From: Candidatus Omnitrophota bacterium
GTDB taxonomy: Bacteria > Omnitrophota > Gorgyraeia > JABMRN01 > RBG-13-46-9
Assembly: GCA_043817155.1 (NCBI GenBank)
Contig: JBDRHE010000059.1
Span: 65,540-129,539 of the forward strand
Length of the DNA stretch: 64,000 nt
Direction of reading: 5' to 3'
Part shown: positions 8,476 through 60,301 of the stretch, piece after piece
Layout of the letters: each line of letters starts with the position of its first letter
Numbering within the stretch: the stretch's first letter is position 1
Program-made: the position numbers and the translations under genes
The notes under the pieces: generated by a model
The model's input: the letters and a program-made list of their open reading frames with translations, nothing else
Told to the model about the DNA's origin: nothing
Database searches by the model: none

Positions 8476-8748
8476 CCCAATGGCGCTGCCGGCAAATGGA
8501 GAGCATTCTGATAATAATCTGATAAGAAGAATTGCCCGCTCACGTTTTGAATTAATTCAAAAAAAATTCATTGCGGGACGGCATCTTCTTGCGGAGAGAA
8601 GAGGGCGCCTGCGGAACTCGGCCGCATGGAAGCGGCCTCATACATCCTCGGCGCTCTTTGCCTCAAAATTGTGGCAAAGAACCTCTTCTCTCCTTAAGAA
8701 GATACCTCAATTCTTAATGCTCTCCATTTGCCGACAGTGCCATTGGGC
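8476..8748 (+). repeat. Structured palindromic element, family C copy 1 (31-nt terminal inverted arms, nested 25-nt inner stem, conserved ~75-nt core)
   Basis: Arms 8476-8507 and 8716-8748 are reverse complements (30/32). The core is nearly identical to 60085-60210 in inverse orientation. Confidence 0.8.
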
Positions 8749-8759
8749 CTCTTCATGCA

Positions 8760-9062
8760 AAAGAAGAAAAACAGAATTCAAAGGAGCCCCATTGGAAAAT
8801 GTTAGCCTTTTATTGAGATGAGGAGAGGTTTCCTTTGTCAGAATATTTTCATACAAAAAAGGATACCACCTGTGTCTGAACCCTACACAATTTTGTCGCA
8901 GACAAAATTGCATTAGGACTGTCCTATAGAAATTCTGCTTTTCTATATTCTAGCAGAATTTCTATAGGGGCCCACACCTTTGGTGTGGGGTGAGTTGCGG
9001 CATCCCCTCTTCTCATTTCAATAAGAGGCATTACCTAATCAAGTAAGGTAAACATTTTCTGG
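8760..9062 (+). repeat. Structured palindromic element, family B copy 1 (19-nt terminal inverted repeat ttattgagatgagaagagg), carrying an inserted perfect 17-bp palindrome at 8923-8968
   Basis: Homologous in inverse orientation to 59398-59640. Internal stem ccacacctttggtgtgg corresponds to ccgcactttatgtgcgg in copy 2. Confidence 0.8.
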
Positions 9063-9118
9063 GAAATGAATTCTGTTTTTCTTCTTTTCTGTAGCTAGGT
9101 CTCGTAGATAATAGGCTT

Positions 9119-9321
9119 GGCAAAAGAGAAGGGGGCCTTCTTCAGGCGCATATTCTCTCTTTGTCTCTTTACAAGGTGAGAGTTGGTATTTTAGGTATAC
9201 GTGAATCTTGGATTACGGCATTTCCTCAATATCCAACGATCACCTTATAAAGAGGCAAGAAGAGAGAATCTTTGCATAATCTTTTATGCATAAGCCTGAA
9301 GAAGGCCCCTTCTCTTTTGCC
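9119..9321. repeat. ~200-bp near-perfect long hairpin (28-bp outer inverted repeat plus nested inner inverted repeats); possible terminator or MITE-like element
   Basis: ggcaaaagagaagggggccttcttcaggc at 9119-9147 versus gcctgaagaaggccccttctcttttgcc at 9294-9321. Lies immediately 3' of the CDS ending at 9383. Confidence 0.6.
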
Positions 9322-9382
9322 TTTAGGGATTCCCGTGGGGGATAGATATGTAACATCGTAAGTATTGTAATTCTCAGATGTT

Positions 9383-10093
9383 TTACCTTGGGTCAAACAG
9401 TGATTTGAACTCAAAAAGGGTTCGTTTTAAGGGAGATTGGATTGTCGACCTGCATAAGCCGGCCGATTTAATTGTAGGCAGAATTGTTATAAAATCGCCA
9501 TAATTGTGATCCGGTAGGGGCTCACCGCTAAGTGTCACCCCTTTCCAATTGCCGGCTTTTATATCATCAAGACTCGCGAACTCACCATGATCATTTACAA
9601 AGTAGACCCCATACTGGGCATCGAAGACAGACCATCTATTATCTAGCTTCACAAATGAGAGTAACGCCGTTCGCTTCTTACCCTCTGTCCCGACCAGTGA
9701 ATAGAACGCTTCGAGACCCGCATAATTGCAAAGTGTCGAGAAGACATCCTGGGATTGGTCATTGGTCCCGTAGCCCCTAACAATTATGTGCCAGACATGG
9801 TCGTCTATAACAGGATAACCATCTGGTACTCTCCTTATATTTCCGTTTATCCAGATAAGTATCTTCATAACCCTTTCCCTCTCGTTATCCGAAGGGGCTA
9901 CGATCTGTTTCACCAAAAGTTGATAATTATAATGCCTGTCGAAGAAATTCAATACTTTAAGGTATAGCGGTAATGTTATGGTATGTACCTTCTGGTTTAT
10001 GCCCTGGCGGGTAGAGACTTCAATATTAAGAGTGAAGATTGCAAAAAAGAACATGCCTATTAAAACTGAAAGGGATATGAGTCTCTTCTTCAT
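9383..10093 (-). CDS. Hypothetical exported/membrane-anchored protein (weak transglutaminase-like resemblance)
   Basis: N-terminal signal/TM segment (LISLSVLIGMFFFAIF). HVWH and RWSVFD motifs vaguely resemble a transglutaminase-like core, but the order is atypical. Confidence 0.3.
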   Translation of the reverse strand: MKKRLISLSVLIGMFFFAIFTLNIEVSTRQGINQKVHTITLPLYLKVLNFFDRHYNYQLLVKQIVAPSDNERERVMKILIWINGNIRRVPDGYPVIDDHVWHIIVRGYGTNDQSQDVFSTLCNYAGLEAFYSLVGTEGKKRTALLSFVKLDNRWSVFDAQYGVYFVNDHGEFASLDDIKAGNWKGVTLSGEPLPDHNYGDFITILPTIKSAGLCRSTIQSPLKRTLFEFKSLFDPR

Positions 10094-10120
10094 TTGATCA
10101 AGTTATCTTCCCCGTATATT

Positions 10121-11188
10121 CTAATCGATAAATCTCTCATGCCACATCTCAAGCATTAAAAGGGACCAGAGCTGGAACGTGTAGTCGCGGGTACCCGAAG
10201 TGTGCTCTTTTACCATTGAGCAAACGGTATCATGATTAAAATATCCTCTTTTCGTAGAGGGTCCCGAAAGTAATGTATCGTGCAAAAGATCCTTTAACTC
10301 ATTTCTGAACCACTTCCCAACCGGCACGCCAAAACCCATCTTACTCCTTACGATATTCTCTCTCGGAAGAAGGTCCTTGACCGCTCTTTTTAGAATGTAC
10401 TTCTTTACAAACCGGCGCATCTTATATTCAGCCGGAAGTTTTGCGACAAATTCCATCAGTTTATGGTCGAGAAACGGCGAACGCGCCTCAAGCGAACAGG
10501 CCATGCTGGCTATATCGACCTTTACAAGAAGATCATCCGGCAGATACGTATGTGTGTCCGTAGCCAGAAGCCTGTCAAGATGGCTTCCCTTCCGGCAATT
10601 GCCGATAAAAGGTTCTATGCGGCTCAATGGACTCTTCATGGTAGTGCGATTCTTAAAATCTTCTGAATATAGCTTCTCCTTTAAATCATTCTGCATTATA
10701 CCTACCCACCTTATGTATCTCTCCGCGAAAGGCAGATCAGCGCCATCAAAGAATCTCTTGATTCTACGCAATCTATTCTTTGAATCCATGGAGTCCGGTA
10801 ACGCGGCCGCAAAACCACTTACTATCCTCTTTAGTGGGGTAGGCATATTCTGATATATCTCCGAAGCGATCATCGCTTTATACCGATCATACCCGGCAAA
10901 CAATTCATCCCCGCCATCGCCGTTCAGCGCTACGGTTACGTAGCGACGCGTCTGGCTTGAAACATAGTAGGTGGGGATGCAGGAAGAATCAGCATATGGT
11001 TCTCCGTACCTCTCTACCAAAAGCGGCAAAATTTCAAGTGCGTTGGGTTTTACTATCAGTTCGTGGTGTATTGTGTTGAACCTCTTAGCCACCCTTCTTG
11101 CGTGTTCTAACTCGTCGTATGATCTCTCCTCAAATCCTATAGAGAATGTCTTAATACGATTTTCGGATAACTGGCTCATAAGGCCCAC
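10121..11188 (-). CDS. Asparagine synthetase-like amidotransferase (AsnB/PseA family), C-terminal synthetase half
   Basis: Asparagine-synthase domain. The PP-loop FLSGGIDSS is encoded just upstream, in frame, immediately after an in-frame TGA. Confidence 0.7.
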   Translation of the reverse strand: MGLMSQLSENRIKTFSIGFEERSYDELEHARRVAKRFNTIHHELIVKPNALEILPLLVERYGEPYADSSCIPTYYVSSQTRRYVTVALNGDGGDELFAGYDRYKAMIASEIYQNMPTPLKRIVSGFAAALPDSMDSKNRLRRIKRFFDGADLPFAERYIRWVGIMQNDLKEKLYSEDFKNRTTMKSPLSRIEPFIGNCRKGSHLDRLLATDTHTYLPDDLLVKVDIASMACSLEARSPFLDHKLMEFVAKLPAEYKMRRFVKKYILKRAVKDLLPRENIVRSKMGFGVPVGKWFRNELKDLLHDTLLSGPSTKRGYFNHDTVCSMVKEHTSGTRDYTFQLWSLLMLEMWHERFID

Positions 11189-11224
11189 GATTGTGCTCGA
11201 ATCTATGCCACCGCTTAAAAACGC

Positions 11225-12013
11225 TCAAAGCGGAACATCGCTGTATAATCTGATATTTACCGCATCCTTAAGGTATCTCATGACTTCCGTTGCAGCGTCT
11301 TCCTCGGATATTTTGATCTTCGCGGAATAGTCAAGGTTCCAGTATCGCCTCAAGGTAGCCTTTTCGTCTTCTAATGTTAGTGTATGGGCCGGCGGCAATT
11401 TGAAGATATCCTCGTATATGGTCAAAGGCGCCGGAATATACCCGAAGGTGAGATAATGGTGCATTGCCTCGTAGCTTATCTTTTTTTCTATGAGTCCGCT
11501 CTCTAAAATCGAAGTGAATTCCGAAGCGAAAACGAATCTCCGGTCCTTATGATAATAGAGCAATGGTTTTTGTCCCGCGCGATCCCTGGCGATAAAAAGC
11601 GTTCGCTTCTTCTGGTCCCATATCGCGAAGGCAAACATGCCACGTAAATACTTGACGCACTCTTCTTTGTGTTCTTCGTAAAGATGTACCGCTACCTCCG
11701 CATCCGTATTTGATCTGAATATATGACCCTTGTTTTTAAGCTCTTCCCTTAAAGTCTTATAATTGTAAATTTCGCCATTCAGCACAAGCCGGATACTTTC
11801 GTCCTCATTAGCCATAGGCTGCGTCCCCTGCGAACTTAAATCGATTATGCTAAGTCTCCTGTGACCCAGTCCGACTTTGGGCGACGATTCAAGGTTAATA
11901 TAAATTCCTCTGTTATCCGGCCCCCTATGCGTCATCTTGTCAGTCATAGCCTGGATCTTATCACGGCTTATAGCGCCGCTTGCATTGTCTATTAGCCCGC
12001 ATATTCCGCACAT
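11225..12013 (-). CDS. Asparagine synthetase-like amidotransferase, N-terminal class II glutamine amidotransferase half (same gene as 10121-11188, interrupted by an in-frame TGA at 11225-11227)
   Basis: MCGICG N-terminal nucleophile Cys; ends ...SDVPL then TGA, then AFLSGGIDSS in the same frame. Confidence 0.7.
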   Translation of the reverse strand: MCGICGLIDNASGAISRDKIQAMTDKMTHRGPDNRGIYINLESSPKVGLGHRRLSIIDLSSQGTQPMANEDESIRLVLNGEIYNYKTLREELKNKGHIFRSNTDAEVAVHLYEEHKEECVKYLRGMFAFAIWDQKKRTLFIARDRAGQKPLLYYHKDRRFVFASEFTSILESGLIEKKISYEAMHHYLTFGYIPAPLTIYEDIFKLPPAHTLTLEDEKATLRRYWNLDYSAKIKISEEDAATEVMRYLKDAVNIRLYSDVPL

Positions 12014-12019
12014 CGCCCG

Positions 12020-13060: not shown

Positions 13061-13074
13061 AACAAACCCTGATT

Positions 13075-16312: not shown

Positions 16313-16313
16313 A

Positions 16314-17963: not shown

Positions 17964-17965
17964 AT

Positions 17966-28214: not shown

Positions 28215-28215
28215 A

Positions 28216-29271
28216 TTATCCTTTCATTTTATTCGCTAAAATCTTCGCTATCCGTTCATGCGCTAAACCGTCCCCATAAAATCTTTCAGGGTCCATTATC
28301 TTGCGCAGCTTCGACATCTTCTTTACAGCCATAACTATCTTTTTGACATTCACTCCCGTTACACAATTGAGCCCGGCTTTCACCGTCTCCAGCCACTCGG
28401 TCTCGTTTCTGATTGTAACACACGGTGTGTTAAATATAAATGCTTCCTTCTGCACGCCGCCTGAATCAGTGACAATAACTTCGGCATTCTTCTCGAGATC
28501 CAGCATTTTTGAGTAGCTTACGGCTTTTGTAACTTTTATATTTCCGGCGATACGTATATTGTATCTCTTTATACATTTCGATGTCCGTGGATGAATCGGC
28601 AATATTACACATTTTTTTAACATGCCGAGTGCTTTAAATATATTCTTAATATTTTTTAAATTATCGGTATTTTCGGCTCTGTGTATCGTACAGAGTATAT
28701 ACTTCTCGGATTCCCCTTTCTTCTTTATTAGACTGCTGAATTTTTTTAAGCTATCATACATAACATCCCCGACAAGATGGACGCCTCGCGTCCTCCCTTC
28801 TCTTCTTAGATTGTCTACCGCTACCCTGGTAGGACAGAAGAGTACGCCGGAAATACTGTCCGTTACAACCCTATTGATCTCTTCCGGCATACTGCTATTG
28901 AAACTTCTAAGCCCCGCTTCCACATGCGCTATGCCAATATTGAGTTTTGAAGCGGCCAGCGCGCCTGCAAGGGTGGAGTTGGTATCCCCATAGACTAACA
29001 CCATATCCGGCTTTTCTTTAAGCAATACATCTTCTACCCCGATAAGCATCTTTGCGGTTTGCTTTGCGTGCGATCCGCAGCCCGCTCCAAGTTCATAGTC
29101 GGGCCTTCGTATATTAAGCTCACTAAAGAATACATCGGACATGTTTCTGTCATAATGTTGGCCCGTATGAATTACAACCTCTTTTATGTGTTGTGATTTA
29201 AGTGCCCTGGAGACTAATGCCATTTTAATGAACTGAGGCCTTGCGCCTATTATTGTCACTATCTTTTTCAT
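28216..29271 (-). CDS. UDP-N-acetylglucosamine 2-epimerase, non-hydrolysing (WecB-like)
   Basis: IIGARPQFIKMA...HTGQHYD motifs characteristic of WecB/MnaA. Confidence 0.8.
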   Translation of the reverse strand: MKKIVTIIGARPQFIKMALVSRALKSQHIKEVVIHTGQHYDRNMSDVFFSELNIRRPDYELGAGCGSHAKQTAKMLIGVEDVLLKEKPDMVLVYGDTNSTLAGALAASKLNIGIAHVEAGLRSFNSSMPEEINRVVTDSISGVLFCPTRVAVDNLRREGRTRGVHLVGDVMYDSLKKFSSLIKKKGESEKYILCTIHRAENTDNLKNIKNIFKALGMLKKCVILPIHPRTSKCIKRYNIRIAGNIKVTKAVSYSKMLDLEKNAEVIVTDSGGVQKEAFIFNTPCVTIRNETEWLETVKAGLNCVTGVNVKKIVMAVKKMSKLRKIMDPERFYGDGLAHERIAKILANKMKG

Positions 29272-37425: not shown

Positions 37426-38218
37426 AATCCAATCGGTTTTTAAAAAGGGCGAGATATAGCCTCAACAAAAAAGTCACGCACATCCACACTAAAAACATGC
37501 AATAGTATATCCACAAAACGCGTATTGTAAAAAACGCCTCTATCAGGATAAAGAGACAGATTCCATCCACAACGCATGTATTGTGAGCAAACAATACCTT
37601 ATCTATCCAGTCTTTTATCTTTCGAGCACCCGGTTTCTCTAGCTTATCATTCGTCCGCTCAGTTTTGCCTTCACCTGTATTTGTCGACCTGGATCTGGCA
37701 AATGCGTAGATAAATCTCTCTTGAGCGCTCTTATATATATCAAGGGCAAAGACTGTTGGAATCACCGGAGCTAAATAAAAAAATATTGGACTCGTTGTAT
37801 TGCCCAAATATATACCCAGGCCGGCCCATAGAGTAATCCAATCGACAGACGCTGAGTAATAATCGAGTATATCTCCGCCTGCTGATTTTTTGTTTTTCAT
37901 ATGAGCAAGCGAACCATCCGCCCAATCCAAAGTGGGTTTTAGAAATAATAAAACGACGGCAACCAATACACATATCACAGGTGGAAGCGCCAATAGGATG
38001 CCTGCGCAAACACTTAGGGCAATGTAAACAACTGTAACGGTGTTTGGAGAAATGGGGGTCTTTAATAACGTAAATACAATAACGCTTGCGCACTCACTAT
38101 AAAAATTTCTTTTGAGCCTACGATATGAAAGACCCCACTTAAATACATCCGGATAGGATCCCATGTGACGTTCGTAGATCTTATGCCTTACTTCGGAATA
38201 TGTTAATGCCATTACCAC
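37388..38218 (-). CDS. CDP-alcohol phosphatidyltransferase-family membrane protein (putative phospho-alcohol/phosphonate headgroup transferase)
   Basis: Polytopic protein with DG..AH.......GG.ILD...D block (DWADGSLAHMKNKKSAGGDILDYYSASVD) approximating the CDP-OH phosphotransferase signature. Confidence 0.5.
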   Translation of the reverse strand: MVMALTYSEVRHKIYERHMGSYPDVFKWGLSYRRLKRNFYSECASVIVFTLLKTPISPNTVTVVYIALSVCAGILLALPPVICVLVAVVLLFLKPTLDWADGSLAHMKNKKSAGGDILDYYSASVDWITLWAGLGIYLGNTTSPIFFYLAPVIPTVFALDIYKSAQERFIYAFARSRSTNTGEGKTERTNDKLEKPGARKIKDWIDKVLFAHNTCVVDGICLFILIEAFFTIRVLWIYYCMFLVWMCVTFLLRLYLALFKNRLDYECENLQRKLYG

Positions 38219-39687
38219 CCCATTTTTTCGTAGTATTCCTCTTTCAGTCCTCTAAAACATTTATTGCCTTCTCGGTCCAAGCGCTCGGCTTTTCTGATAA
38301 TTGGATATCTTGACTTTGGAAGATGAGCATAGAGAGGCGCTGTTCTCCATAATCCTATAATGTCTTTTTCGCTAAAACCATTGTTGCGCAAAACGTACTT
38401 ATTCTGGAAATAATCCTCACCGATAAAGTCTCTGTCTATCATATCATTCTCTTCGCAAATGCGTCTGAGAACAGAGCCTTTGTACGGAGTAAAAAAGAAG
38501 GTGGTCACACCTTCCGGTTTTGATCTTCGCATCAATTCGATCCCGTCGAAAATCATCTTTCGCGTTTCAAATGGCAGGCCGATTATCAAGTTCATCGAAA
38601 AGCCGATCCCGTACTTATGCAATATGCGCGCTGCCTCCGTTACATGCTTATTGGAATATCCGCGATTGAGATATTTCTTTCTATACGCTTCGTTCCCGCT
38701 TTCGACGCCTACACTTACGCGGATACAATTCAACTCCGAAAGCATCTTTCCAGTCTCTTCATTTATTGTTTCGGGCCTTGTCTCCACCCAAAAAGGCAGA
38801 CGGTATCTCTTATATACAGCATAGTAGTCTTTCAATCTCGCCTTACTTACCGCCAAAAAAGATTCGGAGACCTTGAAAACGAACTCAGGTTTATACTTTT
38901 CCACTAATAGCGAATACTCTTCGTCTATTTTTGAAATGGACTTCAGTCTGTACCACCTACCTAATTGCCTGAATTGATCGGTAAGATAGGCATCTGCGCA
39001 ATATGTGCATTTATACGGGCATCCCCGCGATAACTCGATACTTACCGTTCGGCGGATCTTACCCATCATCGGTTTCATCAAAAAGCGATCTCCAAATGCA
39101 GAATAGTCAGGTACAGGCAAAGTATCTATGTTCACGAGGGAGACAGGCCTATTTTTGCGCCATTTTGTACCGACCCTAATCCAGAAACCGGGTTGATCTT
39201 TATAGCTTTTACCATCAGAGATACAGTTGCACAAATCGACAAATGTATTTTCGGCCTCGGATACCGATATAAAATCCACGCCCGTAAGCGCAGAGCAAGA
39301 TTCCGGCCAACATATCGCATGTACCCCACCTACGGCAACCTTAATTTGACTCGAACTGATAATATCGCATGCTGAATTTAGAAGTTTTTTAAAGATGTGG
39401 AAACTGGGTTCAACTACGGAAAACCCTATCACTTCAGGTGAAAAACTTTGGATTTTAGCGCGAAAATCCTCGCACATATCGCTTGAGTTGTATTGCAGGG
39501 TGCACGACTTAAACTGTAAGCCCTCAACCCTTAATTCAGTAGAGCTCTTATAGGCCTGGCGGTAAAATGTCGTATGGAACAATTCTACCTCATGGCCCGC
39601 TTTTTTAAGCGATGTGATTACGCGCGTAACCCCTATAGGCACGACATTGCCCTGCGGCATATCACAATAGACCATTAAGATCTTCAT
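38212..39687 (-). CDS. B12-binding domain radical SAM protein
   Basis: SRGCPYKCTYC; N-terminal cobalamin-binding domain. Confidence 0.8.
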   Translation of the reverse strand: MKILMVYCDMPQGNVVPIGVTRVITSLKKAGHEVELFHTTFYRQAYKSSTELRVEGLQFKSCTLQYNSSDMCEDFRAKIQSFSPEVIGFSVVEPSFHIFKKLLNSACDIISSSQIKVAVGGVHAICWPESCSALTGVDFISVSEAENTFVDLCNCISDGKSYKDQPGFWIRVGTKWRKNRPVSLVNIDTLPVPDYSAFGDRFLMKPMMGKIRRTVSIELSRGCPYKCTYCADAYLTDQFRQLGRWYRLKSISKIDEEYSLLVEKYKPEFVFKVSESFLAVSKARLKDYYAVYKRYRLPFWVETRPETINEETGKMLSELNCIRVSVGVESGNEAYRKKYLNRGYSNKHVTEAARILHKYGIGFSMNLIIGLPFETRKMIFDGIELMRRSKPEGVTTFFFTPYKGSVLRRICEENDMIDRDFIGEDYFQNKYVLRNNGFSEKDIIGLWRTAPLYAHLPKSRYPIIRKAERLDREGNKCFRGLKEEYYEKMGW

Positions 39688-41550: not shown

Positions 41551-43056
41551 TTACATATATTCTTTCAAATATATCTCTTTCAATCGCTCAAATTGCTTAT
41601 CGCCTTCTGCGTCAAACTTTTCACACCTTTCGATTGCCGGCCACATCTCTTCGGGAAACTTCACGTACATAGAAAATGTCCTCTGGAGCCCTTTGATCTC
41701 ATGCGGCGGCAAATGGGGCATTCTTATGTCGGTATCCAATCTGTAATCTCCCGCTATTGCCTTTGGATCGAGGTATCCCTTATCGATAGATAGCTGCCGG
41801 AGCTTGGTACCCCTGTAAGGTGTGAATATATTCACGATGACATTATCGGCCTTGAGCTCTCTGTTCAGTCTTATCGTATCGAAAATAAGTTTTCGTGTCT
41901 CGGTAGGAAACCCGATTATGTTATTGGCGCATGTTCTTATTCCTGTTTTTTTTGCTATACGAAATGCTTTGGCAATCGTATCATTCTTTATCTTTTTGTT
42001 GAGTATGTCTGTGCGGAATTTGTCATTACCGTGCTCTACACCGATACTGATACCCTCGCAACCAACACCGCGCAATAACGAGATCCTATCTTCCATTACC
42101 GAATCGGGGCGCGTCTCAATCCAAAAAGGTAACCCTATTTTTTTGTAGTGTTCTATGAAAGATGCGAATCGTTCTTCGCTCATCATAAGAAAATTTTCGG
42201 CTATAATATATATGTATTGAAGCCCGTAACGCGAACGTTTCTTTTCTATCTCGTCCATTAAGATCTCTATGCTTTTTTCTCTGTAATAGCGTCCCTGGGT
42301 CTTATAGATATCCTGTAATTTTTTGTTGCAACAGAAGGCGCAGTCATAGGGGCATCCTCTATTCATTTCGAACGCGCCGGCTATGTAGATCTTGCCGCCC
42401 ATCGGCTTGTAGAAACGTTGTTTTTCGTATTCTTCCCAATCTTGATATGGCAGGTCATCCAAATTCACGAGTGCCCCTTGGGGGCTACTGTGAATCCTGC
42501 CATCTCTCTTTGTCCAGATATTAGGTATATCCTCATAAGCCTTACCATGCCGCAAACGCTCGGCGAGTTCCAACAGAGCCCTTTCTCCCTCACCCACGCA
42601 TATCATATCTACAGCTTCTTCCTTTATCACCTCATCGGGAGAAAACGTAACATGCACACCTCCCATAATTGTCGGGATACCGCATCCTTTTATGGCATCT
42701 AACAGTTGCAGCCCGATCAAGTAAGTAGATTCCACGACAGAAACGGCTATGAGATCCGGCTCAAATTCCCGTATAAGCTTCTTAAAATCGGAGGTGATCT
42801 CCGTCTCTTTGGGGAAAATTCCGAGCGCCGCAAAATCCGTATATTTCACCTGTAGTGTAGCTACACGGGCATCGTCACCTGTCCTTTCCCGCGTTTTGTA
42901 GAATGTCGTATCAAAGAGTCTAACTTCATGTCCTGCTTGTTTTAAACAACCCGCGAGAAGCGATATGCCAAGGGGTATGAGATTATCTAAAAAACTATTG
43001 GCCAGAACCAATAATACCTTTGTTCCGCGTTTTTTGTCTTTTGCGCCCTTTTGCAT
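41551..43056 (-). CDS. B12-binding domain radical SAM protein
   Basis: NRGCPYDCAFC; CVGEGE cobalamin-domain motif. Confidence 0.8.
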   Translation of the reverse strand: MQKGAKDKKRGTKVLLVLANSFLDNLIPLGISLLAGCLKQAGHEVRLFDTTFYKTRERTGDDARVATLQVKYTDFAALGIFPKETEITSDFKKLIREFEPDLIAVSVVESTYLIGLQLLDAIKGCGIPTIMGGVHVTFSPDEVIKEEAVDMICVGEGERALLELAERLRHGKAYEDIPNIWTKRDGRIHSSPQGALVNLDDLPYQDWEEYEKQRFYKPMGGKIYIAGAFEMNRGCPYDCAFCCNKKLQDIYKTQGRYYREKSIEILMDEIEKKRSRYGLQYIYIIAENFLMMSEERFASFIEHYKKIGLPFWIETRPDSVMEDRISLLRGVGCEGISIGVEHGNDKFRTDILNKKIKNDTIAKAFRIAKKTGIRTCANNIIGFPTETRKLIFDTIRLNRELKADNVIVNIFTPYRGTKLRQLSIDKGYLDPKAIAGDYRLDTDIRMPHLPPHEIKGLQRTFSMYVKFPEEMWPAIERCEKFDAEGDKQFERLKEIYLKEYM

Positions 43057-44516
43057 TAAGTGACCCTTCCCATGATCATTTCCGAAAGTTCAGGGTGTTT
43101 TATCAGAAATCCTTCAAACTTGTTTTCCCACGCCTTGGGATTCCTTCTTCTAGAAGCCTCGTTAAATTCTCTCGTTCTCCTCTCGACCATTTTTTCCAGC
43201 TTCTCGGGCTCTATGCCGTAATTATCCGGTGAATCTTTGGGAATACGTATCTTGACTTTTTTGAGATCCATCCCAAAATCTCCGCCGTATAGATAGCCCT
43301 TCTCCAGGCTGTAATCATATAACTCGGAACCCGGAAGAGGACTTGCTATAAAAAAAGAGATGCTATCCGCCTCTGTTTGTGAAGGAAAATCGAGCGTCTG
43401 ATAGATCTCTTCCTTTGTCTCTCCGGGAAGTCCGACCAAAAATAAGAGATGGACGCTTATTCCGTTCTCATGCGCCTTGCGAATGAGATGTTTCGACTTA
43501 TCCAAATCGACATTCTTGTGTACAATCTCCTTCAACACCCGGGGAGAAGCGCTCTCTATAGCCATGCTTATCTGGTAACAGCCGCTCTGGCCCATGACGC
43601 GCAGAAGTTCTTCGTCAACGGTATTTGTCATAAGGCCGTGGGGGGTACACCAGTGGATGTTGAGATGCTTCATCCTGCGAAAGAGTTCCTTTGCCCTTTT
43701 CGGATCAGCGGTAAGATTATCATCGATAAACTGAACCTCTCCGATATTATACCTTTCTTTGAGTAGCTCTATCTCTTCCATAATGTTATCAACGCTTCTC
43801 TTTCTGAATTTCCTTCCCCAGTAATTTACCGTAGAACAGAAATTGCACTTTCCGGGACATCCTCTCGATGTCAATATTTGAACAACCCTGTTACTCTTAA
43901 AAAAAGGCGCGTAGGGTACGGCAATATCGAAATAACGTTCTAAATCGACCAGATGCCTGGCGGGGAGAGGCAATGAGTCGAGGTCTTCGATCCGTGAGGT
44001 CGGCTGGTTTATTATTACACGACCTCCTTTTTTATAAGCTATTCCGTCTATATCGAGATCTCCCTCTAGGAGTTTCACGAGTCTCTCTTCCCCCTCTCTC
44101 ATAACGATATAATCGACATTGCGATCCGCCAAAATGTCCCGGGGGTAAAGAGACGGATGGAGCCCACCTACTATGACGGTAATGTCGCCCGCTTCTTTCG
44201 CCAGTTTACATATCTTAAGCGTCTCCTGTATGCGTGCGGAAAATAGGGAACTGACGCCTACTGCATCCGGCTGAAAAGTCTTTATTCTCTTTAGGATCTC
44301 TTGATCGCTTAAACCATAGTGAATGTACCCCCCTCCGAGATCCGTTATTTCGTTATAGCCCTCGGCGCTTGAATCCAATATATTTACCTTATAGCCGTGC
44401 TTTTCCAGGGACGAAGCAATGTACAGTAAACCTAAAGGCTCTCCGATTCTGCGGATACTGTCATTGGGCATAACCATGCCAGGTTCTATTAACATGATCT
44501 TATTAATTTTCTTCAT
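43056..44516 (-). CDS. B12-binding domain radical SAM protein (start placed at internal MKKINKIM, which gives an ATGA overlap with the upstream gene)
   Basis: SRGCPGKCNFC; MREGEE cobalamin-domain motif. The ORF track extends to 44648, but those 44 upstream codons overlap the preceding decarboxylase subunit. Confidence 0.75.
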   Translation of the reverse strand: MKKINKIMLIEPGMVMPNDSIRRIGEPLGLLYIASSLEKHGYKVNILDSSAEGYNEITDLGGGYIHYGLSDQEILKRIKTFQPDAVGVSSLFSARIQETLKICKLAKEAGDITVIVGGLHPSLYPRDILADRNVDYIVMREGEERLVKLLEGDLDIDGIAYKKGGRVIINQPTSRIEDLDSLPLPARHLVDLERYFDIAVPYAPFFKSNRVVQILTSRGCPGKCNFCSTVNYWGRKFRKRSVDNIMEEIELLKERYNIGEVQFIDDNLTADPKRAKELFRRMKHLNIHWCTPHGLMTNTVDEELLRVMGQSGCYQISMAIESASPRVLKEIVHKNVDLDKSKHLIRKAHENGISVHLLFLVGLPGETKEEIYQTLDFPSQTEADSISFFIASPLPGSELYDYSLEKGYLYGGDFGMDLKKVKIRIPKDSPDNYGIEPEKLEKMVERRTREFNEASRRRNPKAWENKFEGFLIKHPELSEMIMGRVT

Positions 44517-45088
44517 TCCAGCGCTACTCCTGCCATCTCTTGTTTGATTCTGGATGTAAGCTCCTCCGGAGAAACGGCAACTCTCTTGGATGCTCTTTCG
44601 GTTCCGGAGAGACTTATTTTCAATAAAATAAAGACTGGACCTTTGCAAGTCAAGATCTCGCCAATCGAATCCCTAAGAATCTTCAAGTTGCTGAGCTTAA
44701 AAACCTTTTTATACCCGGCTGATTTCGCTATCTTCGAAAGGTCGACACGCCTGGTAAGCGTTGGCTGTCCCCCCGTGGATTCGTAACTCTCATTATCCAA
44801 TACAATGTGCGCTAAGTTAGGAGGATTGTGGCTCGCGATCATACCAAGCGATCCCATATCCATCAGAACGCTGCCGTCACCATCGAATATAAAAACTTTT
44901 TTTTCTGTACTTAGCGCCATACCCAATCCTACAGAGGAGACTAAACCCATGGAGCCCACGATGTAAAAATTGCCAGGTCTGTCGCTCTTTGAAAATGCGT
45001 AACGGGAGATATAGCCTGTCGTAAAAAGAGCGATATCTTCGCTTCCCAGATGATTCAACATAATGGCCAAAGCTTCACGACTCTTCAT
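44513..45088 (-). CDS. Phosphonopyruvate decarboxylase, beta subunit (TPP-binding C-terminal domain; ComE-like)
   Basis: ThDP-binding GDG motif FDGDGS...NESYESTGGQ. Confidence 0.7.
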   Translation of the reverse strand: MKSREALAIMLNHLGSEDIALFTTGYISRYAFSKSDRPGNFYIVGSMGLVSSVGLGMALSTEKKVFIFDGDGSVLMDMGSLGMIASHNPPNLAHIVLDNESYESTGGQPTLTRRVDLSKIAKSAGYKKVFKLSNLKILRDSIGEILTCKGPVFILLKISLSGTERASKRVAVSPEELTSRIKQEMAGVALE

Positions 45089-47207: not shown

Positions 47208-47234
47208 GATCTTCTCTCTTTTTTATTTGCCCTC

Positions 47235-48815: not shown

Positions 48816-48819
48816 ACTT

Positions 48820-50694: not shown

Positions 50695-50711
50695 AGTGTT
50701 ATAGTCTTTAT

Positions 50712-51713
50712 TTACGAAAACACGGAGTGGTAAACCTTGCTCGCGATCTTGTCAAAATGGAAACGCGAGAGAAACTTTTTCGTGTAATGTTTGATCATCA
50801 TATTTCTCAAATAGCTCGATACCTCCTCTGAATGATTTGCGAGATCCTGTCCGTCACAACTGCCGGCAGATATCTCAAAAATAGAGAACATATGTATTGT
50901 TTGGGCCGGACCATGCGTCAGACGCCGCAAGCCTGCTAAAGAGCAATAGTGGTTAAGTGTCTCCGGATCAAAATAGTATGTATGGGCATTCTGAAGTTGC
51001 CCCATGCAAAAATTCATGATATTTGGAACTGCTATGTATAAGAGACCACCGGTTTTAAGATGCAATATGATCTTTTTGAGCGAATCCACCGGATCAAGAA
51101 AGTGCTCCAGTGCGTGGTTTATTATTATAACGTCATGATCTCCTTTTATGCGCTCAACATCCCCTTGTGACATATCGATTCCGTGTTCTCTTCCTAAGGA
51201 TACGAGACTCGGACTGTGATCTATGCCGGCAACGCCGGCGCCCTTTTCCAGGAACGGTATGAGGTTCCACCCTCCTCCTGCCGCGCATTCCAGAACAGAT
51301 ACTTCCGGACCTATCTTCTTGACCTTACTTATCTCGTCAAATATATGCTGACCTGTTCGATTGGTATATTTCTGCTCATATCTAGATAAGTAATTATCCG
51401 AGTCGTAGCATCTTCTGTAGAAATCGGATGAGTAGAATCGAGCGTACTCTCCTGGGGTCATCCGCGGGTTTGACTGCATAAGTCCGCACTTTCGGCATAA
51501 TACGGTCTTTTGAAGCATCAGATGTCTTTCCACCGATGCCACGAGCTCAAACTCTTCTGAACCACAAAGGCAGGGAACGTATTCAAGTCGCACATCGCCA
51601 CGCAACACTTCTTCATTAAAATTCTTTACGAGATCACCCTGCCCCTTATCAAGGCACATATAGGAAGCCTGGCGCGTTGAATGAAACTCTTTATAGGGTA
51701 ATATCTTCTTCAT
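50712..51713 (-). CDS. Class I SAM-dependent methyltransferase with N-terminal zinc-ribbon
   Basis: CxCG...CxxCG ribbon; motif I VLECAAGGG. Confidence 0.6.
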   Translation of the reverse strand: MKKILPYKEFHSTRQASYMCLDKGQGDLVKNFNEEVLRGDVRLEYVPCLCGSEEFELVASVERHLMLQKTVLCRKCGLMQSNPRMTPGEYARFYSSDFYRRCYDSDNYLSRYEQKYTNRTGQHIFDEISKVKKIGPEVSVLECAAGGGWNLIPFLEKGAGVAGIDHSPSLVSLGREHGIDMSQGDVERIKGDHDVIIINHALEHFLDPVDSLKKIILHLKTGGLLYIAVPNIMNFCMGQLQNAHTYYFDPETLNHYCSLAGLRRLTHGPAQTIHMFSIFEISAGSCDGQDLANHSEEVSSYLRNMMIKHYTKKFLSRFHFDKIASKVYHSVFS

Positions 51714-53098
51714 GTCTGTCTGAAACCGCGGAATGCCGCATTCTTCTTCACGTAGAGTTCCTCACATTGCCTGCGGCTTGCCAAAAGCTTCTTATTATAA
51801 TAATTATCGAGCAACCTCTCGTTGGCGTCCTTAAGACACATGTGAAACTCATCATCGCTTAACTCGGTAAAATTTACCGCCGGCAGGTCTGAATTCATAT
51901 GCTTATTTTCGTAAAAATCTTTTACATCTTTGAGAAGGCCTTTTTCGATAGCGTAATAGTAGAGCGGCGAGCCGGGGTACGGTGTTACGGGACGCAGAGT
52001 TCTTAGCTGCGCCCCGTCATCGTACTTGATCAGAAAGTCCACGGCTTTCTTAAGTGTCCGGTTTGTATCGCCTATGTTGCCGAATAACAGGTTAAGGCCG
52101 GGAGTTATGCCTGCGCTTATGGTGCCTTCTACGCCTTTTATAATAATATCGACCGTCAAAGCCTTCTTCATATTTTTCAATACTTCATTATCCATGGCCT
52201 CAATACCATAATTGATGAACACGCATCCGGATTCCTTCATCAACTTTAATACATCTTTTTTGGCGTAGTTCAATCTGCCGTTACACTTCCACCTTATGTT
52301 CAGCCCGGCCCTGATAAAACTTTCGCATAATGAAACAGTCCTCTCTTCTGAGGACATCAGAAGTTCATCGGTAAAATCGATATAATTTATGTCGTATTGA
52401 GTCTTTAAAAGCTCGATCTCTTCGATAATGCTCTTCTCGCTTCTGGGCCTGAACCCCTCATCCATTCTGTAACAGAAATTACAGTTAAAGGTGCATCCCC
52501 TTCCCGATAAAATAGGCATCATAAAATCACTCTTTCCCATGGTGATGTCTCTAAATAGCCTGTAATAATCTATGGGAAAGAGCCCATATGCAGGAAACGG
52601 TATTGAATCTATATCTTTTATGAGACCTCGTCGTTTATTGATTACTACCTTCTTTCCATCGAGATATGCTATACCATCGATCTTCGTAAGTGGTTTACGA
52701 TTAGCGACGCTTTCGATGAGTTCTATTACAGTCTCTTCCCCTTCTCCGATTATAGCCGCATCGGCGCCACTCTTCTTTAGAAAGTACTCCGGTTCGGGAG
52801 AAGGGCCGTGGCCGCCAATCATATAAAATGGCCTTTGTCTCGATCTGTTTATCGCATCCGATATTTTTAATAACTTTCTATATTGATAGTATCCCCCTAT
52901 AACACCCAACCCGACAAAATCGAATCTATTGTTATCCAGGTATCGCGTGAGATGTTCTTCGGAGTAGTGGAACTTGTCTTGGTTATAAAGCTCCACATCA
53001 TGGCCCTGCTTCAACAGCACAGAAGCTATATAGGCTATGCCTTGCGGAAATATGTGAATGTATGAACCGTTATCGTAAGCTATCAATAGGATTCTCAT
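51710..53098 (-). CDS. B12-binding domain radical SAM protein
   Basis: IGEGEE; GRGCTFNCNFC. Confidence 0.8.
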   Translation of the reverse strand: MRILLIAYDNGSYIHIFPQGIAYIASVLLKQGHDVELYNQDKFHYSEEHLTRYLDNNRFDFVGLGVIGGYYQYRKLLKISDAINRSRQRPFYMIGGHGPSPEPEYFLKKSGADAAIIGEGEETVIELIESVANRKPLTKIDGIAYLDGKKVVINKRRGLIKDIDSIPFPAYGLFPIDYYRLFRDITMGKSDFMMPILSGRGCTFNCNFCYRMDEGFRPRSEKSIIEEIELLKTQYDINYIDFTDELLMSSEERTVSLCESFIRAGLNIRWKCNGRLNYAKKDVLKLMKESGCVFINYGIEAMDNEVLKNMKKALTVDIIIKGVEGTISAGITPGLNLLFGNIGDTNRTLKKAVDFLIKYDDGAQLRTLRPVTPYPGSPLYYYAIEKGLLKDVKDFYENKHMNSDLPAVNFTELSDDEFHMCLKDANERLLDNYYNKKLLASRRQCEELYVKKNAAFRGFRQT

Positions 53099-53240
53099 AC
53101 TTCTGTTCCTTTTATACCTTATACTTCGCTTTTAAAATGCAGAAACGCCACGTAAGGAGCGAGAAGAACTCTCTCTACTCTCTACTTGCTACTCGCTACT
53201 TAAGAAAATCTGTGCCTATCTGTCCTCTGTAGCCTTGGCT

Positions 53241-53403
53241 ATTCAAGTCCCGGGCTTTCTAGGTAAACCATCTTTATCAAGCCCGGGACTTGAATACAAT
53301 CTCCTTGACTGCATCCCAGGACTTCAAATTCCGGTAATAAGCCTGCGTTCAGGTCCCGGGCTTGATAAAAGAGGTTGTCATAGAAAGCCCGGGACCTGAA
53401 CGC
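53241..53403. repeat. Two tandem hairpin repeats with a tcccgggc core (stems 53241-53257/53279-53295 and 53345-53363/53385-53403); REP-like intergenic palindromes
   Basis: Perfect 17-19-bp stems. The second loop is roughly the reverse complement of the first. Confidence 0.6.
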
Positions 53404-53429
53404 ACCCAAAAGGCTGCGCCTATATAACA

Positions 53430-56702: not shown

Positions 56703-56705
56703 CTT

Positions 56706-57551
56706 CTATCCTTCTTTCATCGCGCCATCATTTACACAAGGGTCCTCGATATCGTAATCATGCGCCGTAGGAACACCCCAGAAATGGCAATACGAACAGA
56801 GCGGTATCTTATTCCTGCTCCCTCTTTTATGCAACTCCATCCACTCGGCCCTTCTCTTACCGTTCCATATCTCATCTAAAGAATCTCTCTTCGCATCCCC
56901 GATCACTCCAAGGCCTTTCGGATCAAAGCGGACGCATATAGAGACCTTGCCGCAGATGTTAACGCAAAGATGGTGGAGAAAATCCCAGCATATTCCGATC
57001 TCCGGTATAGTCGGGTTCTTCTTCCTGTAGTTGAAGCTGCCCATCTTGGCATGTAGTACCCTTCTTATAATAAGAGATCCCAGCTCCTGGTACCTTGCAG
57101 GATCCACATCCCCAATGAGCCGTAGACTGGTAAAAGGCTTTCTCGCGCCTTTAAGCTTAAGAAATCTCTTTATGAGCTTATATTGCTCATCCGCCTCTGT
57201 ATCACCTTCAAATACGGATACAGAGATGGTGTCCAGATTGTCGATGATCTCTTCGGACTTCTCAAGTAAGAGCTTGCCGTTAGTGACTATATTCTTTATC
57301 TGCTTTGAGAATAATTTAACCGCATCACCAAAACGCGGATAGAGGAGCGCCTCTCCATCCCTATGAAACTGGACAACTATATTCTCCGGCAGCTGCGAAG
57401 CCAGCCTTCCGACAAGTTCAAAATCCATGTCACCGTACTTGAGAGCAAGTTCCGGATGATCCCTGTCTACCTTACGCCTGCCGCACATCCAGCAGGCCTT
57501 GTTACACCTGGAGGTAAGCTCAATGTTGATGCATGCAAGTCCGCTTAGCAT
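56706..57551 (-). CDS. Radical SAM protein (non-B12), with C-terminal Cys-rich SPASM/twitch-like region
   Basis: CNKACWMC CxxxCxxC near N-terminus; additional Cys clusters CVNICGKVSIC and CSYCHFWG. Confidence 0.6.
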   Translation of the reverse strand: MLSGLACINIELTSRCNKACWMCGRRKVDRDHPELALKYGDMDFELVGRLASQLPENIVVQFHRDGEALLYPRFGDAVKLFSKQIKNIVTNGKLLLEKSEEIIDNLDTISVSVFEGDTEADEQYKLIKRFLKLKGARKPFTSLRLIGDVDPARYQELGSLIIRRVLHAKMGSFNYRKKNPTIPEIGICWDFLHHLCVNICGKVSICVRFDPKGLGVIGDAKRDSLDEIWNGKRRAEWMELHKRGSRNKIPLCSYCHFWGVPTAHDYDIEDPCVNDGAMKEG

Positions 57552-57610
57552 TGTATTGCCTCTGTCATCTTAACAAAATTCGTTATCCTTCGAATCGTCC
57601 GTATTCCGTC

Positions 57611-57905
57611 ATCTCTCTTCTGTCTTTGCGAGGCACATTGTCATTCGAAGCGTGCCGAAGCCTGCCTGCCGGCAGGCAGGCAGGCAATCTCGCTTTCCTT
57701 CGTCTTTGCGAGGCACCGGAATATTCGAGCGTGCCGAAGCAATCTCTGCTTACCTCGTCTTTGCGAGGCACCGTAAAATTCGAGCGTGCCGAAGCAATCT
57801 CATTCGAGCTAGTTTGAGATTGCTTCGGTGCGCTAACCTATTTACGGCACCTCGCAAAGACGGGTAAAACATTGCTTCGGTGCGCTAGCTCTTTACGGCA
57901 CCTCG
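57611..57905. repeat. BIME/REP-like array: three direct ~46-bp units (gtctttgcgaggcac-N7-ttcgagcgtgccgaagcaatctc) followed by two inverted units; first unit carries an inserted ctgcctgccggcaggcagg palindrome
   Basis: Direct reading of repeats in the 408-bp intergenic region. Related partial unit at 59757-59830; related gc-palindrome at 59526-59547. Confidence 0.75.
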
Positions 57906-57959
57906 CAAAGACGAGTAAATAATCGTCCTACGTCCTACGTCCATCGTAGCGTAAAATTG

Positions 57960-58841: not shown

Positions 58842-58866
58842 AATAAAACCCCCCTTCTTTAATGAT

Positions 58867-59235
58867 CTAAACCTTGATCTCCTTCTTAAAATTCTCGATC
58901 TCGAGCTTTAGCCTCGCATATTGTTGGGTCTTCCAGGTTAAGAATTCGCGTGCCAGGCGTATCTTCGTCTTAATACCGTATGGCGTGAGCAAATACATGT
59001 AAGCAAGTTTTCTCTTTGAATTCTTAAAATTCTGTATCTTTATAACGCCTTTATCCACAAGGGCGTTGATAAGAAAGTTTATCTTCCCTAGGCTAACTGT
59101 CATCTTTTCGGCAAGATAGCGCTGGGTAGCCTGCGGGTTCTTCTCTATCTCCCTTATCAGATGGTAGGCCTCTTCAGATTCAAAAATATCAACAACCTTG
59201 CCGTTTGTTATCTTCTTCTGGTTACCGTTCTTCAT
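58867..59235 (-). CDS. MarR-family winged-helix regulator (EPS-locus-associated type); start placed at internal MKNGNQK
   Basis: wHTH region QRYLAEKMTVSLGKINFLINALVDKGVI; ~120 aa from the internal Met. The ORF track extends to 59397. Confidence 0.5.
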   Translation of the reverse strand: MKNGNQKKITNGKVVDIFESEEAYHLIREIEKNPQATQRYLAEKMTVSLGKINFLINALVDKGVIKIQNFKNSKRKLAYMYLLTPYGIKTKIRLAREFLTWKTQQYARLKLEIENFKKEIKV

Positions 59236-59397
59236 GTGTTCAACCTCTGAACATATAGTATCAAAATAGACCATTTTAGTCAAGCCTATATGCCAAATAA
59301 TATTACATTTAGCACCCCACCTCTCAACCGGAGTATGCCAGCAGCCTGGGGCGCATGAGAGCATTCTGCGCATAGCAGAAAGAAGAAGAGAATTCAT

Positions 59398-59640
59398 TCC
59401 CCAGAAAATGTTTACCTCCGCTTATTAGGTAACGCCTTTTATTGAGATGAGAAGAGGGGATGCCGAACTCACCCCGCACATAAAGTGCGGGGTTCAAACA
59501 TTGCGTCATCCTTTTTGTATGAAAATCCCTGCCTGCCGGCAGTGCAGGTTCTTACAAAGAAAACCTCTTCTCATCTCAATAAAAGGCTAACATTTTCCAA
59601 TGGGGCCCCTTTGAATTCTCTTCTTCTTCTCTCTTAGAGG
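59398..59640 (-). repeat. Structured palindromic element family B copy 2 (inverse orientation to 8760-9062), with inserted gc-palindrome
   Basis: Terminal inverted repeat ttattgagatgagaagagg / cctcttctcatctcaataa. Flanks (ggtaaacattttctgg; aaaggggccccattggaaaatgttagcc) match copy 1 as reverse complement. Confidence 0.8.
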
Positions 59641-59719
59641 ACTGTTGTTAATACTCACTAATTGTGCCCCATTTTTAATGTGTAATATCGGTCTAATTAT
59701 TGATAAAGTTCTTTCATCC

Positions 59720-59848
59720 CCGCGAAAGAGGCTGTATCGCAATACCGTTTTAGGCCTCAAAACATCGTCTTTGCGAGGAGGCGCGAAGCGCCAACGTAGC
59801 AATCTCCGACGAGACACAGGTGAGATTGCTACACAGCCTCGAAAGCGG
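59720..59848. other. Compact structured element (candidate small RNA or REP unit): outer stem ccccgc...gcgggg enclosing hairpins ggcgc-gaa-gcgcc and gtagcaatctc/gagattgctac
   Basis: Nested stems read directly; contains a family-A-like cgtctttgcgagg motif. Confidence 0.3.
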
Positions 59849-60049
59849 GGATCCATAAGTGTACTCTTTCTAATGCATTGGGGCTAGACTGGATTCCCGC
59901 TGTAGTTTAGACCTCGGCAGCGGTCCGGGAATAACAGAGTGTTGAGCAAGCTTATTAAGAGCTCCAAAAGGTTAACGACTTATTGAGCTTGTACAACTGT
60001 CCCCATACGAAGTCTATCCCTTTCTTTAAAGAGAGGCCACAGGGTTTGA

Positions 60050-60301
60050 GCCGGTAAACGAAGAGCGTTAAAAATTGAGGTATCTTCTGAAGGAGAGAAG
60101 AGGTTATCTGCCACAATATTTTGAGGCAAAGAGCGCCGAGGATGTTCGAGGCCGCTTCCATGCGGCCGAGTTCCCGAAGGCGCCCTCTTCTCTCCTTCAG
60201 AAGATACCGTACCGTAGGGGGTATATCCCGGATTAGCTAAAGGCATAGGAGGGCAATTTTTCTTATCAGATTATTATCAGAACGCTCTTCGTTTACCGGC
60301 T
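60050..60301 (-). repeat. Structured palindromic element family C copy 2 (31-nt perfect terminal inverted arms, 25-nt perfect inner stem, conserved core)
   Basis: Arms 60050-60080 / 60271-60301 are perfect reverse complements; the core matches 8590-8715 in reverse complement with few mismatches. Confidence 0.8.

Follow-up and report, generated by a model that had tools for sequence, protein, structure and literature searches.

The locus and its two repeat blocks

The stretch of DNA analysed here, referred to as the window, comprises 64,000 nucleotides of a Candidatus Omnitrophota genome (GenBank assembly GCA_043817155.1, contig JBDRHE010000059.1, positions 65,540 to 129,539) and contains a large glycan locus. 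All genes of the window are encoded on the minus strand, and the 40 of about 52 genes that were scanned include glycosyltransferases, sugar epimerases, aminotransferases, NeuB, cytidylyltransferases and many methyltransferases. Our subject is two intergenic blocks of palindromic DNA about 50 kb apart, each of which combines one element of a family termed C with one element of a family termed B. As stated in an initial annotation of the window and supported by Pfam matches, each block separates the stop of a biosynthetic gene from a gene for a winged-helix regulator.

Block 1 begins with the palindromic element C1 (284 bp, 8470-8753), which lies on the plus strand with respect to the reference orientation used here for all elements. 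Its terminal arms (8470-8507 and 8716-8753) measure 38 nt and are 89% complementary, its inner stem (8580-8604 and 8682-8706) is 88% complementary and its apex, GGAACTCGGCCGCATGGAAGCGGCCTC, is found at 8613-8639. The family C profile matches C1 with an E value of 3.5e-64 (nhmmer). Only 5 bp away, B1 (330 bp, 8759-9088) follows on the minus strand and thus tail-to-tail with C1. It is closed by 22-nt arms of 100% complementarity (8759-8780 and 9067-9088), has a nested second pair (8805-8828 and 9006-9029) and contains a lineage-specific insertion (about 110 bp) with a perfect 17-bp hairpin inside (8923-8968). The family B profile detects B1 on the minus strand (E 4e-73), and the family C profile also matches positions 8784-8859 on this strand.

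In block 2 the order is reversed. B2 (251 bp, 59380-59630, plus strand) possesses two fully complementary pairs of arms, one of 17 nt (59380-59396 and 59612-59628) and one of 24 nt (59434-59457 and 59564-59587), and is matched by the B profile at E 9e-78 and by the C profile at E 5.6e-6, also on the plus strand. A spacer of 404 bp (59631-60034) separates B2 from C2 and agrees with the insertion of roughly 400 bp noted initially; it forms an imperfect palindrome of its own at 59716-59852 (inverted repeat 59716-59743 and 59825-59852) and had no match elsewhere. C2 (281 bp, 60035-60315, minus strand) stands tail-to-tail with B2. Its terminal arms (60035-60069 and 60281-60315) extend over 35 nt with 97% complementarity, the inner stem (60079-60103 and 60184-60208) is 100% complementary and the match to the family C profile reaches E 2.3e-64. 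Terminal arms had already been described for both families, and each unit was found in this analysis to have near-perfect ones, with an arm sequence that varies among copies.

Block alignment demonstrated that C1 and B1 indeed return in reverse complement as B2 and C2. The long inverted repeats of the window that span more than 50 kb consisted of only five collinear segments, connecting 8488-9083 with 59380-60300 and extending over 127 nt (76%), 82 nt (93%), 86 nt (87%), 69 nt (87%) and 57 nt (96%). The inverted composite block of the initial annotation therefore holds as far as the mutual inversion is concerned, but is better described as a tail-to-tail pair of related elements that may be arranged either way round. 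The blocks look mutually inverted because each of them is such a pair, with C1 on the plus and B1 on the minus strand in the first and B2 on the plus and C2 on the minus strand in the second. Accordingly, the element facing the regulator gene is C in block 1 and B in block 2.

Two subfamilies of one superfamily

Reciprocal profile matches indicate a single superfamily with B and C as its two subfamilies: a profile built from seven C copies detected B, a profile built from three B copies detected C (E 1e-4 to 1e-6), and the relative orientation of the cross-matches was always consistent. The units are 215-350 bp long, with measured lengths of 214-348 bp, have arms of 20-38 bp and lack coding capacity. 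Their termini read AG(A/C)CC(T/C)AA. Both subfamilies share one order of parts, namely a closing stem, a helix of the GAAAATGTT/AACATTTTC type, a 5'-side hairpin, a long inner helix and a central hairpin flanked by GAACTC and TCAAACAT, whereas a 3'-side module is optional. The closing stem comprises 20-35 bp and is followed by nested helices and by one or two side hairpins of variable sequence. In family C the apex (GAACTC, hairpin, TCAAACAT) is invariant over about 32 nt in all copies, and its core GGAACTCGGCCGCATGGAAGCGGCCTC is identical even in copies with arms diverged beyond recognition. Long-form C copies bear extra hairpins at fixed sites, with conserved stems and with loops that vary from copy to copy; these variants are distributed in a mosaic manner among the copies of one sample. 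Pairing of the tail-to-tail kind is not obligatory, since at the locus L006 of another genome B and C flank the gene mfd in the same orientation.

Several functions for the apex were considered and set aside. The conserved ATG was rejected as the start of a small open reading frame (ORF), as the frame shifts between C1 and C2 and the long-form insertions occur at this place; a short ORF across C1 is likewise not conserved owing to the frame shift. A likeness of the sequence ATCCTC behind the apex hairpin to IncP-type nic sites was dropped because family B does not have it. On the reverse strand the apex could adopt the tandem G·A geometry of a K-turn, but the adjoining stem is non-canonical and the resemblance is a hint only.

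Base pairing and compensatory change

The compensatory arm changes reported initially were confirmed. Between C1 and C2 the 5' arms vary at 12 of 31 aligned positions, and essentially all differences are mirrored in the partner arm; in the inner part, where homology is clear, four of the 12 are transitions that have been compensated (CCGGCAAATGGAGAGCATT versus CCGGTAAACGAAGAGCGTT). The homology of the C1 and C2 inner arms with their compensated transitions led us to reject the idea that the arms are halves of a host palindrome split by the interior.

The fold of family C was predicted with RNAalifold from seven short-form copies of five genomes or populations. It has 64 predicted pairs, 33 of which are changed on both sides and yet remain paired. 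The proportion of paired cells was 90.2% in comparison to 76.9 ± 1.2% in column shuffles, and not one of 500 shuffles reached the observed value. When the partner was slid by one to three columns as a control, 38-55% of the cells were paired and 6-10 pairs were doubly changed. The central hairpin of family B covaries too, as seen in the consensus fold of B1, B2 and the L006 copy, and the small 5'-side hairpin retains a T·T mismatch amid covarying pairs in 9 of 13 copies. Selection for pairing in the B and C elements, or some mechanism which corrects it, is real. The initial claim of selection on secondary structure is thus upheld with regard to the pairing kept within the window and across genomes, but the discrete structured RNA inferred from it is disfavoured by the observations given below. 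Compensatory change by itself cannot tell RNA from mobile DNA, because the hairpins of mobile REPINs are documented to show such changes as well (PMC3116915).

Pairing might also arise as a mutational by-product of template-switch 'correction' of quasipalindromes or of gene conversion between arms, which would make the elements inert relics. Template switching in quasipalindromes is an established mutation mechanism in bacteria and supports this view, and so do the near absence of G·U pairs and the perfect Watson-Crick arms (31 of 31 positions in C2). The T·T mismatch, the internal loops and the asymmetric 3'-side module have, however, been conserved and not corrected away, the 32-nt apex is unchanged across divergent genomes and the arms lie more than 200 bp apart. 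We therefore regard a purely mutational origin of the pairing as very unlikely.

Distribution in other genomes

At least five other genomes or metagenome populations of Omnitrophota hold copies of family C. One genome per species was scanned with a 20-mer from the C apex, and matches which extended beyond the 20-mer were obtained only in metagenome-assembled genomes (MAGs) of Omnitrophota type (loci L006, L010, L013 and L017); the remaining ones were bare 20-mers in GC-rich genomes. A scan of metagenomes with a 25-mer yielded 12 further loci, of which L029 is identical to L013. Many of the metagenome loci are situated at contig ends, as expected for repeats, which break assemblies. The sample Ga0315294 alone held at least eight distinct loci with near-identical arms. 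Viral contigs scanned with the C core and a B motif gave no match.

The C copies adjoin various unrelated housekeeping genes, which encode, among others, RecG, a PfkB kinase, YchF, QueA, FtsH, Fmt, Mfd, an ABC ATPase, an RlmI-like methyltransferase, NUDIX and HAD proteins and ThiC. Relative to the flanking transcription the two orientations occurred nine and seven times. The elements had been proposed to delimit the glycan locus, which is not compatible with copies adjoining unrelated genes in other Omnitrophota. What the initial annotation had named as its counter-scenario, a dispersal without association to this locus, describes the data from other genomes in essence: the neighbours are unrelated, and the elements are absent from four loci orthologous to that of the block-1 regulator.

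As a side observation, recG (L013, at 13 nt) and mfd (L006, at 160 nt), from two different genomes, each follow immediately downstream of a family C copy. The position beside two genes for translocases of branched DNA or stalled complexes is, given the other neighbours, probably a coincidence.

Regulator genes and empty sites

The gene downstream of block 1 (7705-8259, minus strand) encodes a winged-helix regulator of the GbsR/MarR family with weak Pfam matches to MarR_2 and TrmB. It has 381 homologues, which are named GbsR or MarR by their sources, and the 100% match is a protein of a Candidatus Omnitrophota MAG. The regulator also heads nonulosonic-acid or glycan clusters at four other loci, L035 to L038. 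There the spacers upstream of the gene measure 84-259 bp, compared to 1124 bp in the window, and the surplus of about 900 bp in the latter consists of C1, B1 and a third palindrome (9119-9321). At L038 the upstream transglutaminase-like gene is syntenic as well. A promoter-like site and a palindromic operator-like site lie outside the repeat elements at 8300-8348 on the minus strand, and this segment corresponds by orthology to the entire short spacer of the related genomes. The promoter-like site of the window reads TTGCAA-16-TATAAT (8348-8321) and agrees with the consensus at 10 of 12 positions; in L035 to L038 the corresponding sequence is TTGACA-N17-TAxxxT, followed by a sequence resembling TTTAGAAC..GTTCTAAA. 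The shared promoter and operator region together with the synteny at L038 thus amount to a comparison of empty with filled sites. A link of the B and C elements to the glycan regulator locus, as originally suggested, does not hold in view of their absence from these four orthologous loci.

The palindromic site of the TTTAGAAC..GTTCTAAA type is found just downstream of the -10 region in all five genomes (window, 8300-8318, minus strand; L035, about 9950-9975; L036, about 9930-9955; L037, about 5955-5980; L038, about 5960-5985). This putative operator is probably autoregulatory for the GbsR/MarR regulator. On the coding strand a terminator-like hairpin followed by a T run (8447-8464, minus strand; a pattern match only) lies immediately downstream of C1. 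With the blocks upstream of the promoter-like sites of the regulators and a putative terminator behind C1, the blocks would form part of the upstream transcripts, at their 3' ends.

Downstream of block 2, a regulator of the HTH_24/MarR-like winged-helix type is encoded at 58867-59235 (minus strand). The mechanically called ORF extends to 59397 and thereby into the B2 arm; Pfam HTH_24 matches residues 80-120 of this long form with an E value of 1e-7. A promoter-like site (59327-59300) lies inside the long ORF, and GAGG precedes the ATG at 59235 by about 9 nt. The true start is probably 59235, which predicts a gene of 122 amino acids. In B1 the same ATGAATTC arm sequence as in B2 opens an ORF of just 10 codons (plus strand, 9064-9096). 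The two block-flanking regulators exhibit no homology to each other, so they are not paralogues and the reading of the blocks as parts of a duplicated regulator cassette was rejected.

The upstream position relative to regulators which head surface-glycan operons speaks for the assumption that the elements are invertons, with arms as recombinase sites, or that the two blocks invert or excise the 50-kb glycan segment in a form of phase variation. Arms of 20-35 bp around about 210 bp correspond to the geometry of invertons, the orientation of the interior varies among loci and the blocks are mutually inverted. Yet no sigma-70-like promoter is contained in any copy on either strand, and the promoter-like sites of the regulators are outside the elements, in sequence orthologous to element-free spacers. 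No recombinase or transposase was detected among the window genes scanned. The arms differ between copies of one genome, which would keep a single invertase from recognising both; the interior as a whole is palindromic too, and most copies adjoin housekeeping genes. With respect to the 50-kb segment, the blocks share unbroken identity over no more than 37 bp, the next longest tracts measuring 28 and 27 bp, and genes within the segment point the same way as those beyond it. Tracts of this length are near the lower limit for RecA-dependent exchange. A switch of either kind appears highly improbable, and the inversion or excision put forward initially is unsupported.

Folded RNA or folded DNA

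In the paired cells of the family C fold, 383 Watson-Crick pairs were counted along with 11 G·U and 9 A·C combinations. This near parity of G·U and A·C, the occurrence of both orientations and the lack of an Rfam match argue against the discrete structured RNA proposed initially. The window had no match to Rfam 15 at gathering score, and at E values of up to 10 or 5 the blocks and four other element-bearing loci gave only chance-level matches; the one significant match among these loci is an unrelated tRNA gene in L030. A tRNA and tmRNA search of the window was likewise negative. A conserved sigma-70-like promoter was absent within 16 copies on either strand, non-canonical promoters being outside the scan, and neither such a promoter nor a conserved terminator was detected in or beside the elements.

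A related possibility is a dedicated cis-acting RNA, shaped as a rod with an invariant protein-binding apex and embedded in neighbouring mRNAs, which would be selected for processing, insulation or stabilisation at operon boundaries, with mobility secondary or absent. The strong covariation is in line with such an RNA, as are the conserved side hairpin with its covarying pairs around the T·T mismatch (9 of 13 copies), the optional helices inserted at fixed sites and an apex that is invariant across genomes with wholly diverged arms. The two strands, moreover, show weak asymmetries. The reverse strand is the more stably folded one in six of seven copies, by 10-24 kcal/mol; its conserved mismatches would be G·A and not C·U, with tandem G·A flanks at the apex hairpin, and its unpaired G exceeds C. 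These asymmetries hint at one preferred single strand, which would fit an RNA role. At several loci only 13-58 nt lie between the end of the element and a start codon, leaving no room for a separate promoter. Against a cis-acting RNA stand the lack of G·U enrichment over A·C (11 versus 9), the roughly equal orientations with respect to transcription (9 versus 7), the negative results for promoters, terminators and Rfam families, the orthologous positions devoid of an element and the presence of multiple copies and mosaic variants within one population. The notion that variable loops target the downstream translation start was also dropped, as the elements showed no particular complementarity to their own start (diagonal, -32.1 kcal/mol) versus the starts of others (off-diagonal, -31.9 kcal/mol). 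On balance we consider a dedicated cis-acting RNA unlikely.

Probable interspersed palindromic repeats

The B and C elements are, in our assessment, probably interspersed, non-autonomous palindromic repeats of Candidatus Omnitrophota that resemble MITEs (transposable elements of the miniature inverted-repeat type), REPINs, ERIC and Correia elements. They are not a device specific to the glycan cluster, because the family sits between ordinary genes in many Omnitrophota genomes. Signs of mobility include multiple copies with shared arms in a population and presence or absence at orthologous loci. The elements are further intergenic, close to gene boundaries, inserted in either orientation and clustered with other palindromic elements.

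Several observations weigh against this assignment. No target-site duplication was seen at the element boundaries when the flanks of 13 copies were inspected, and in about 330 kb of sequence no transposase, RAYT or parent insertion sequence (IS) with the same ends was found. The conservation is the reverse of that in a classical MITE, with an invariant apex and variable termini. The two C copies of this genome have strongly diverged arms and are therefore not recent transpositions, and the complete genome CP070780.1 gave just one exact core match. The reverse-strand asymmetries in folding stability, mismatch type and unpaired G described above belong here as well.

In the window, the two tail-to-tail pairs of B and C occupy two spacers between operons and lie upstream of the promoter-like sites that belong to the regulators themselves. 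The selected state would be a folded single strand, either of DNA during replication or mobilisation or of co-transcribed RNA, and selection on this strand would account for the compensated changes in the stems. A trans-acting protein may use the invariant apex as its recognition site. Established examples from other bacteria are the Correia and REP elements, which determine the RNase III-type processing or the stability of transcripts; by analogy, co-transcribed rods of B and C would probably do the same at operon ends.

A more far-reaching and rather doubtful proposal regards the superfamily as a phylum-wide structured nucleic-acid module whose apex (GAACUC-hairpin-UCAAACAU) would dock a dedicated protein of the Omnitrophota. 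Such a module may be mobilised by recognition of the hairpin, without target duplication and with stems kept complementary by copying, or it may be a rod-shaped, cis-acting RNA of a new class which punctuates the operons of these very small genomes.

For the locus itself, the attractive idea of structured RNAs bracketing a phase-variable glycan segment of 50 kb is removed as unsupported, and the regulators are seen to keep their own ancestral, putative promoter and operator.

Other repeats, an IS-like element and the glycan genes

The long spacers of the window (8260-9382, 53099-53429, 57552-57959 and 59238-60402) are all filled by imperfect palindromes. Different palindromic families also adjoin C at other loci, so the clustering of palindromes in spacers is a common trait of these genomes. 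An imperfect palindrome of about 200 bp (9119-9321), located between the stop of the upstream gene and B1, was recognised by a self-match in reverse-complement BLAST; it comprises nested repeats (9119-9147 and 9294-9321; 9154-9195 and 9224-9265), belongs to a different family and has no similarity to the B or C profiles. Two more unrelated families are represented by an intergenic palindromic element of 159 bp (53242-53400) and by a cluster of palindromic and tandem repeats (57684-57915), the latter with a 55-nt direct repeat and inverted arms.

Four C copies are interrupted at one and the same internal site by an IS-like element, with the 3' closing arm replaced after AAATATT by GTTATGTAAAGTGTCAAGCC. 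These junctions are located in L024 (5877-5896), L026 (2675-2694), L028 (2914-2933) and L032 (1650-1669), and in L034 (5780-5800) a C-type 3' arm borders on GGCTTGACACTTTAACATATC, the inverted counterpart, which marks a matching right-end junction. The contigs end inside the element. With its ends GTTATGTAAAGTGTCAAGCC and GGCTTGACACTTTAACATATC it looks like a site-specific IS with terminal repeats of about 20 bp and possibly a 3-bp duplication (ATT).

Solitary C-type arms occur beside other repeats in L027 and L034. A highly self-complementary repeat of about 430 nt lies next to them (L027, about 2944-2500, minus strand; L034, about 5700-5300, minus strand), in opposite orientations at the two loci, and also forms the left flank of the C copy of L034; it had no Rfam match at E values up to 5, L027 having been scanned as a whole. 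Two more palindromic families were noticed beside C copies, one pair of occurrences at L025 (1687-1889) and L031 (1379-1483) and another at L010 (752-1000) and L027 (about 2460-2340). One of these families has inner arms CTGTGATAAAATTTTGAT and ATCAAAATTTTATAACAG, the other has arms GTGTGCAAGGATTTACGTC and GACGTAAACCGTAGCACAC. The loop of the 3'-side hairpin of B2 (59519-59541) accommodates a GC-rich mini-palindrome of 21-22 bp and the CCTGCCTGCCGGCAGGCAGG type. The same type was encountered in an unrelated spacer of L006 (7370-7405), beside sequence that occurs without it elsewhere in that locus, and may be a tiny REP-like insert.

The glycan locus contains unusually many paralogous genes for B12-binding radical S-adenosylmethionine (SAM) proteins, at least five to six, among them those at 29268-30824, 33853-35316, 38212-39687, 43056-44648 and 51710-53098 (all minus strand). 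Further candidates exist among the other ORFs. A SPASM-type radical SAM gene (56706-57551), two PMT_2 (ArnT-like) transferases and many SAM methyltransferases were observed as well. The predicted enzyme set suggests a heavily methylated or otherwise modified glycan. An asparagine-synthase-like gene appears as two ORFs 36 bp apart (10121-11188 and 11225-12013, minus strand), of which one encodes a GATase_7 domain (262 amino acids) and the other an Asn_synthase domain (355 amino acids). A frameshift or pseudogene could account for the split, as could misassembly or two genes that are genuinely separate.

Comparison with known repeat systems

Omnitrophota are uncultivated bacteria, often ultra-small and with compact genomes. 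Full-text literature searches turned up neither this motif nor any interspersed repeat family described from the phylum.

Like the REP, REPIN and BIME repeats of Pseudomonas and E. coli, for which RAYT transposases provide mobility, the B and C elements are interspersed extragenic palindromes which form long hairpins in single-stranded DNA or mRNA. REPINs also share the compensatory changes across the hairpin (PMC3116915), and the repeats of this group form mosaics of units in alternating orientation, comparable to the tail-to-tail pairs of B and C. The specific IS insertion in C copies has its parallel in REPs, which are targets of elements of the IS110 family (PMC12288879). In contrast, REPs measure 20-40 nt and REPINs, which are inverted doublets, about 100 nt with conserved ends, whereas B and C extend over 215-350 bp, are invariant in the centre and vary at the ends. 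B and C lack a tag of the GTAG or CGTC kind, no gene for RAYT, a Y1 HUH transposase, was seen among the window genes scanned and the copy number appears far lower than that of REPINs.

The Correia elements (NEMIS, CREE), which are MITEs, belong to the same size class, have terminal inverted repeats of about 25-35 bp, lie in intergenic positions near gene starts or ends and are polymorphic in presence between related genomes. In Neisseria the Correia hairpins are cut by RNase III, and co-transcription of B and C is expected to yield long hairpins as well. Unlike Correia elements, which generate a TA target-site duplication, B and C show none; no parent IS was found for them, their termini are less conserved than the centre, and they are palindromic throughout, with side hairpins, and not only at the ends.

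With the ERIC or IRU sequences of enterobacteria and vibrios, B and C have in common an imperfect palindrome that is conserved across genera, a transcribed intergenic location in either orientation and longer variants which result from insertions at fixed internal sites, as in long-form C and between B1 and B2. ERIC sequences are, however, about 127 bp long, restricted to Gammaproteobacteria and without sequence similarity to B and C, which are two to three times longer and possess the invariant apex.

The invertons known, for example, from capsule loci of Bacteroides likewise consist of inverted repeats around about 200 bp and precede the first, regulatory gene of surface-glycan operons. B and C differ from them in the lack of an internal sigma-70-like promoter and of a recombinase among the scanned genes, in arms that are not common to the copies and in the location of most members beside housekeeping genes.

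The B and C family is consequently best filed with the bacterial interspersed palindromic repeats, a kind that includes REP and REPIN, ERIC and Correia or MITE sequences. Its length, the invariant apex of about 32 nt, the variable and covarying termini and the specific IS insertion site set it apart within this kind. The invariant sequence, the compensated stems and the IS site make the family usable as a marker in strain typing and in the diagnosis of assembly breaks, and the family offers a tractable case for studying how palindromic repeats persist and what recognises them.

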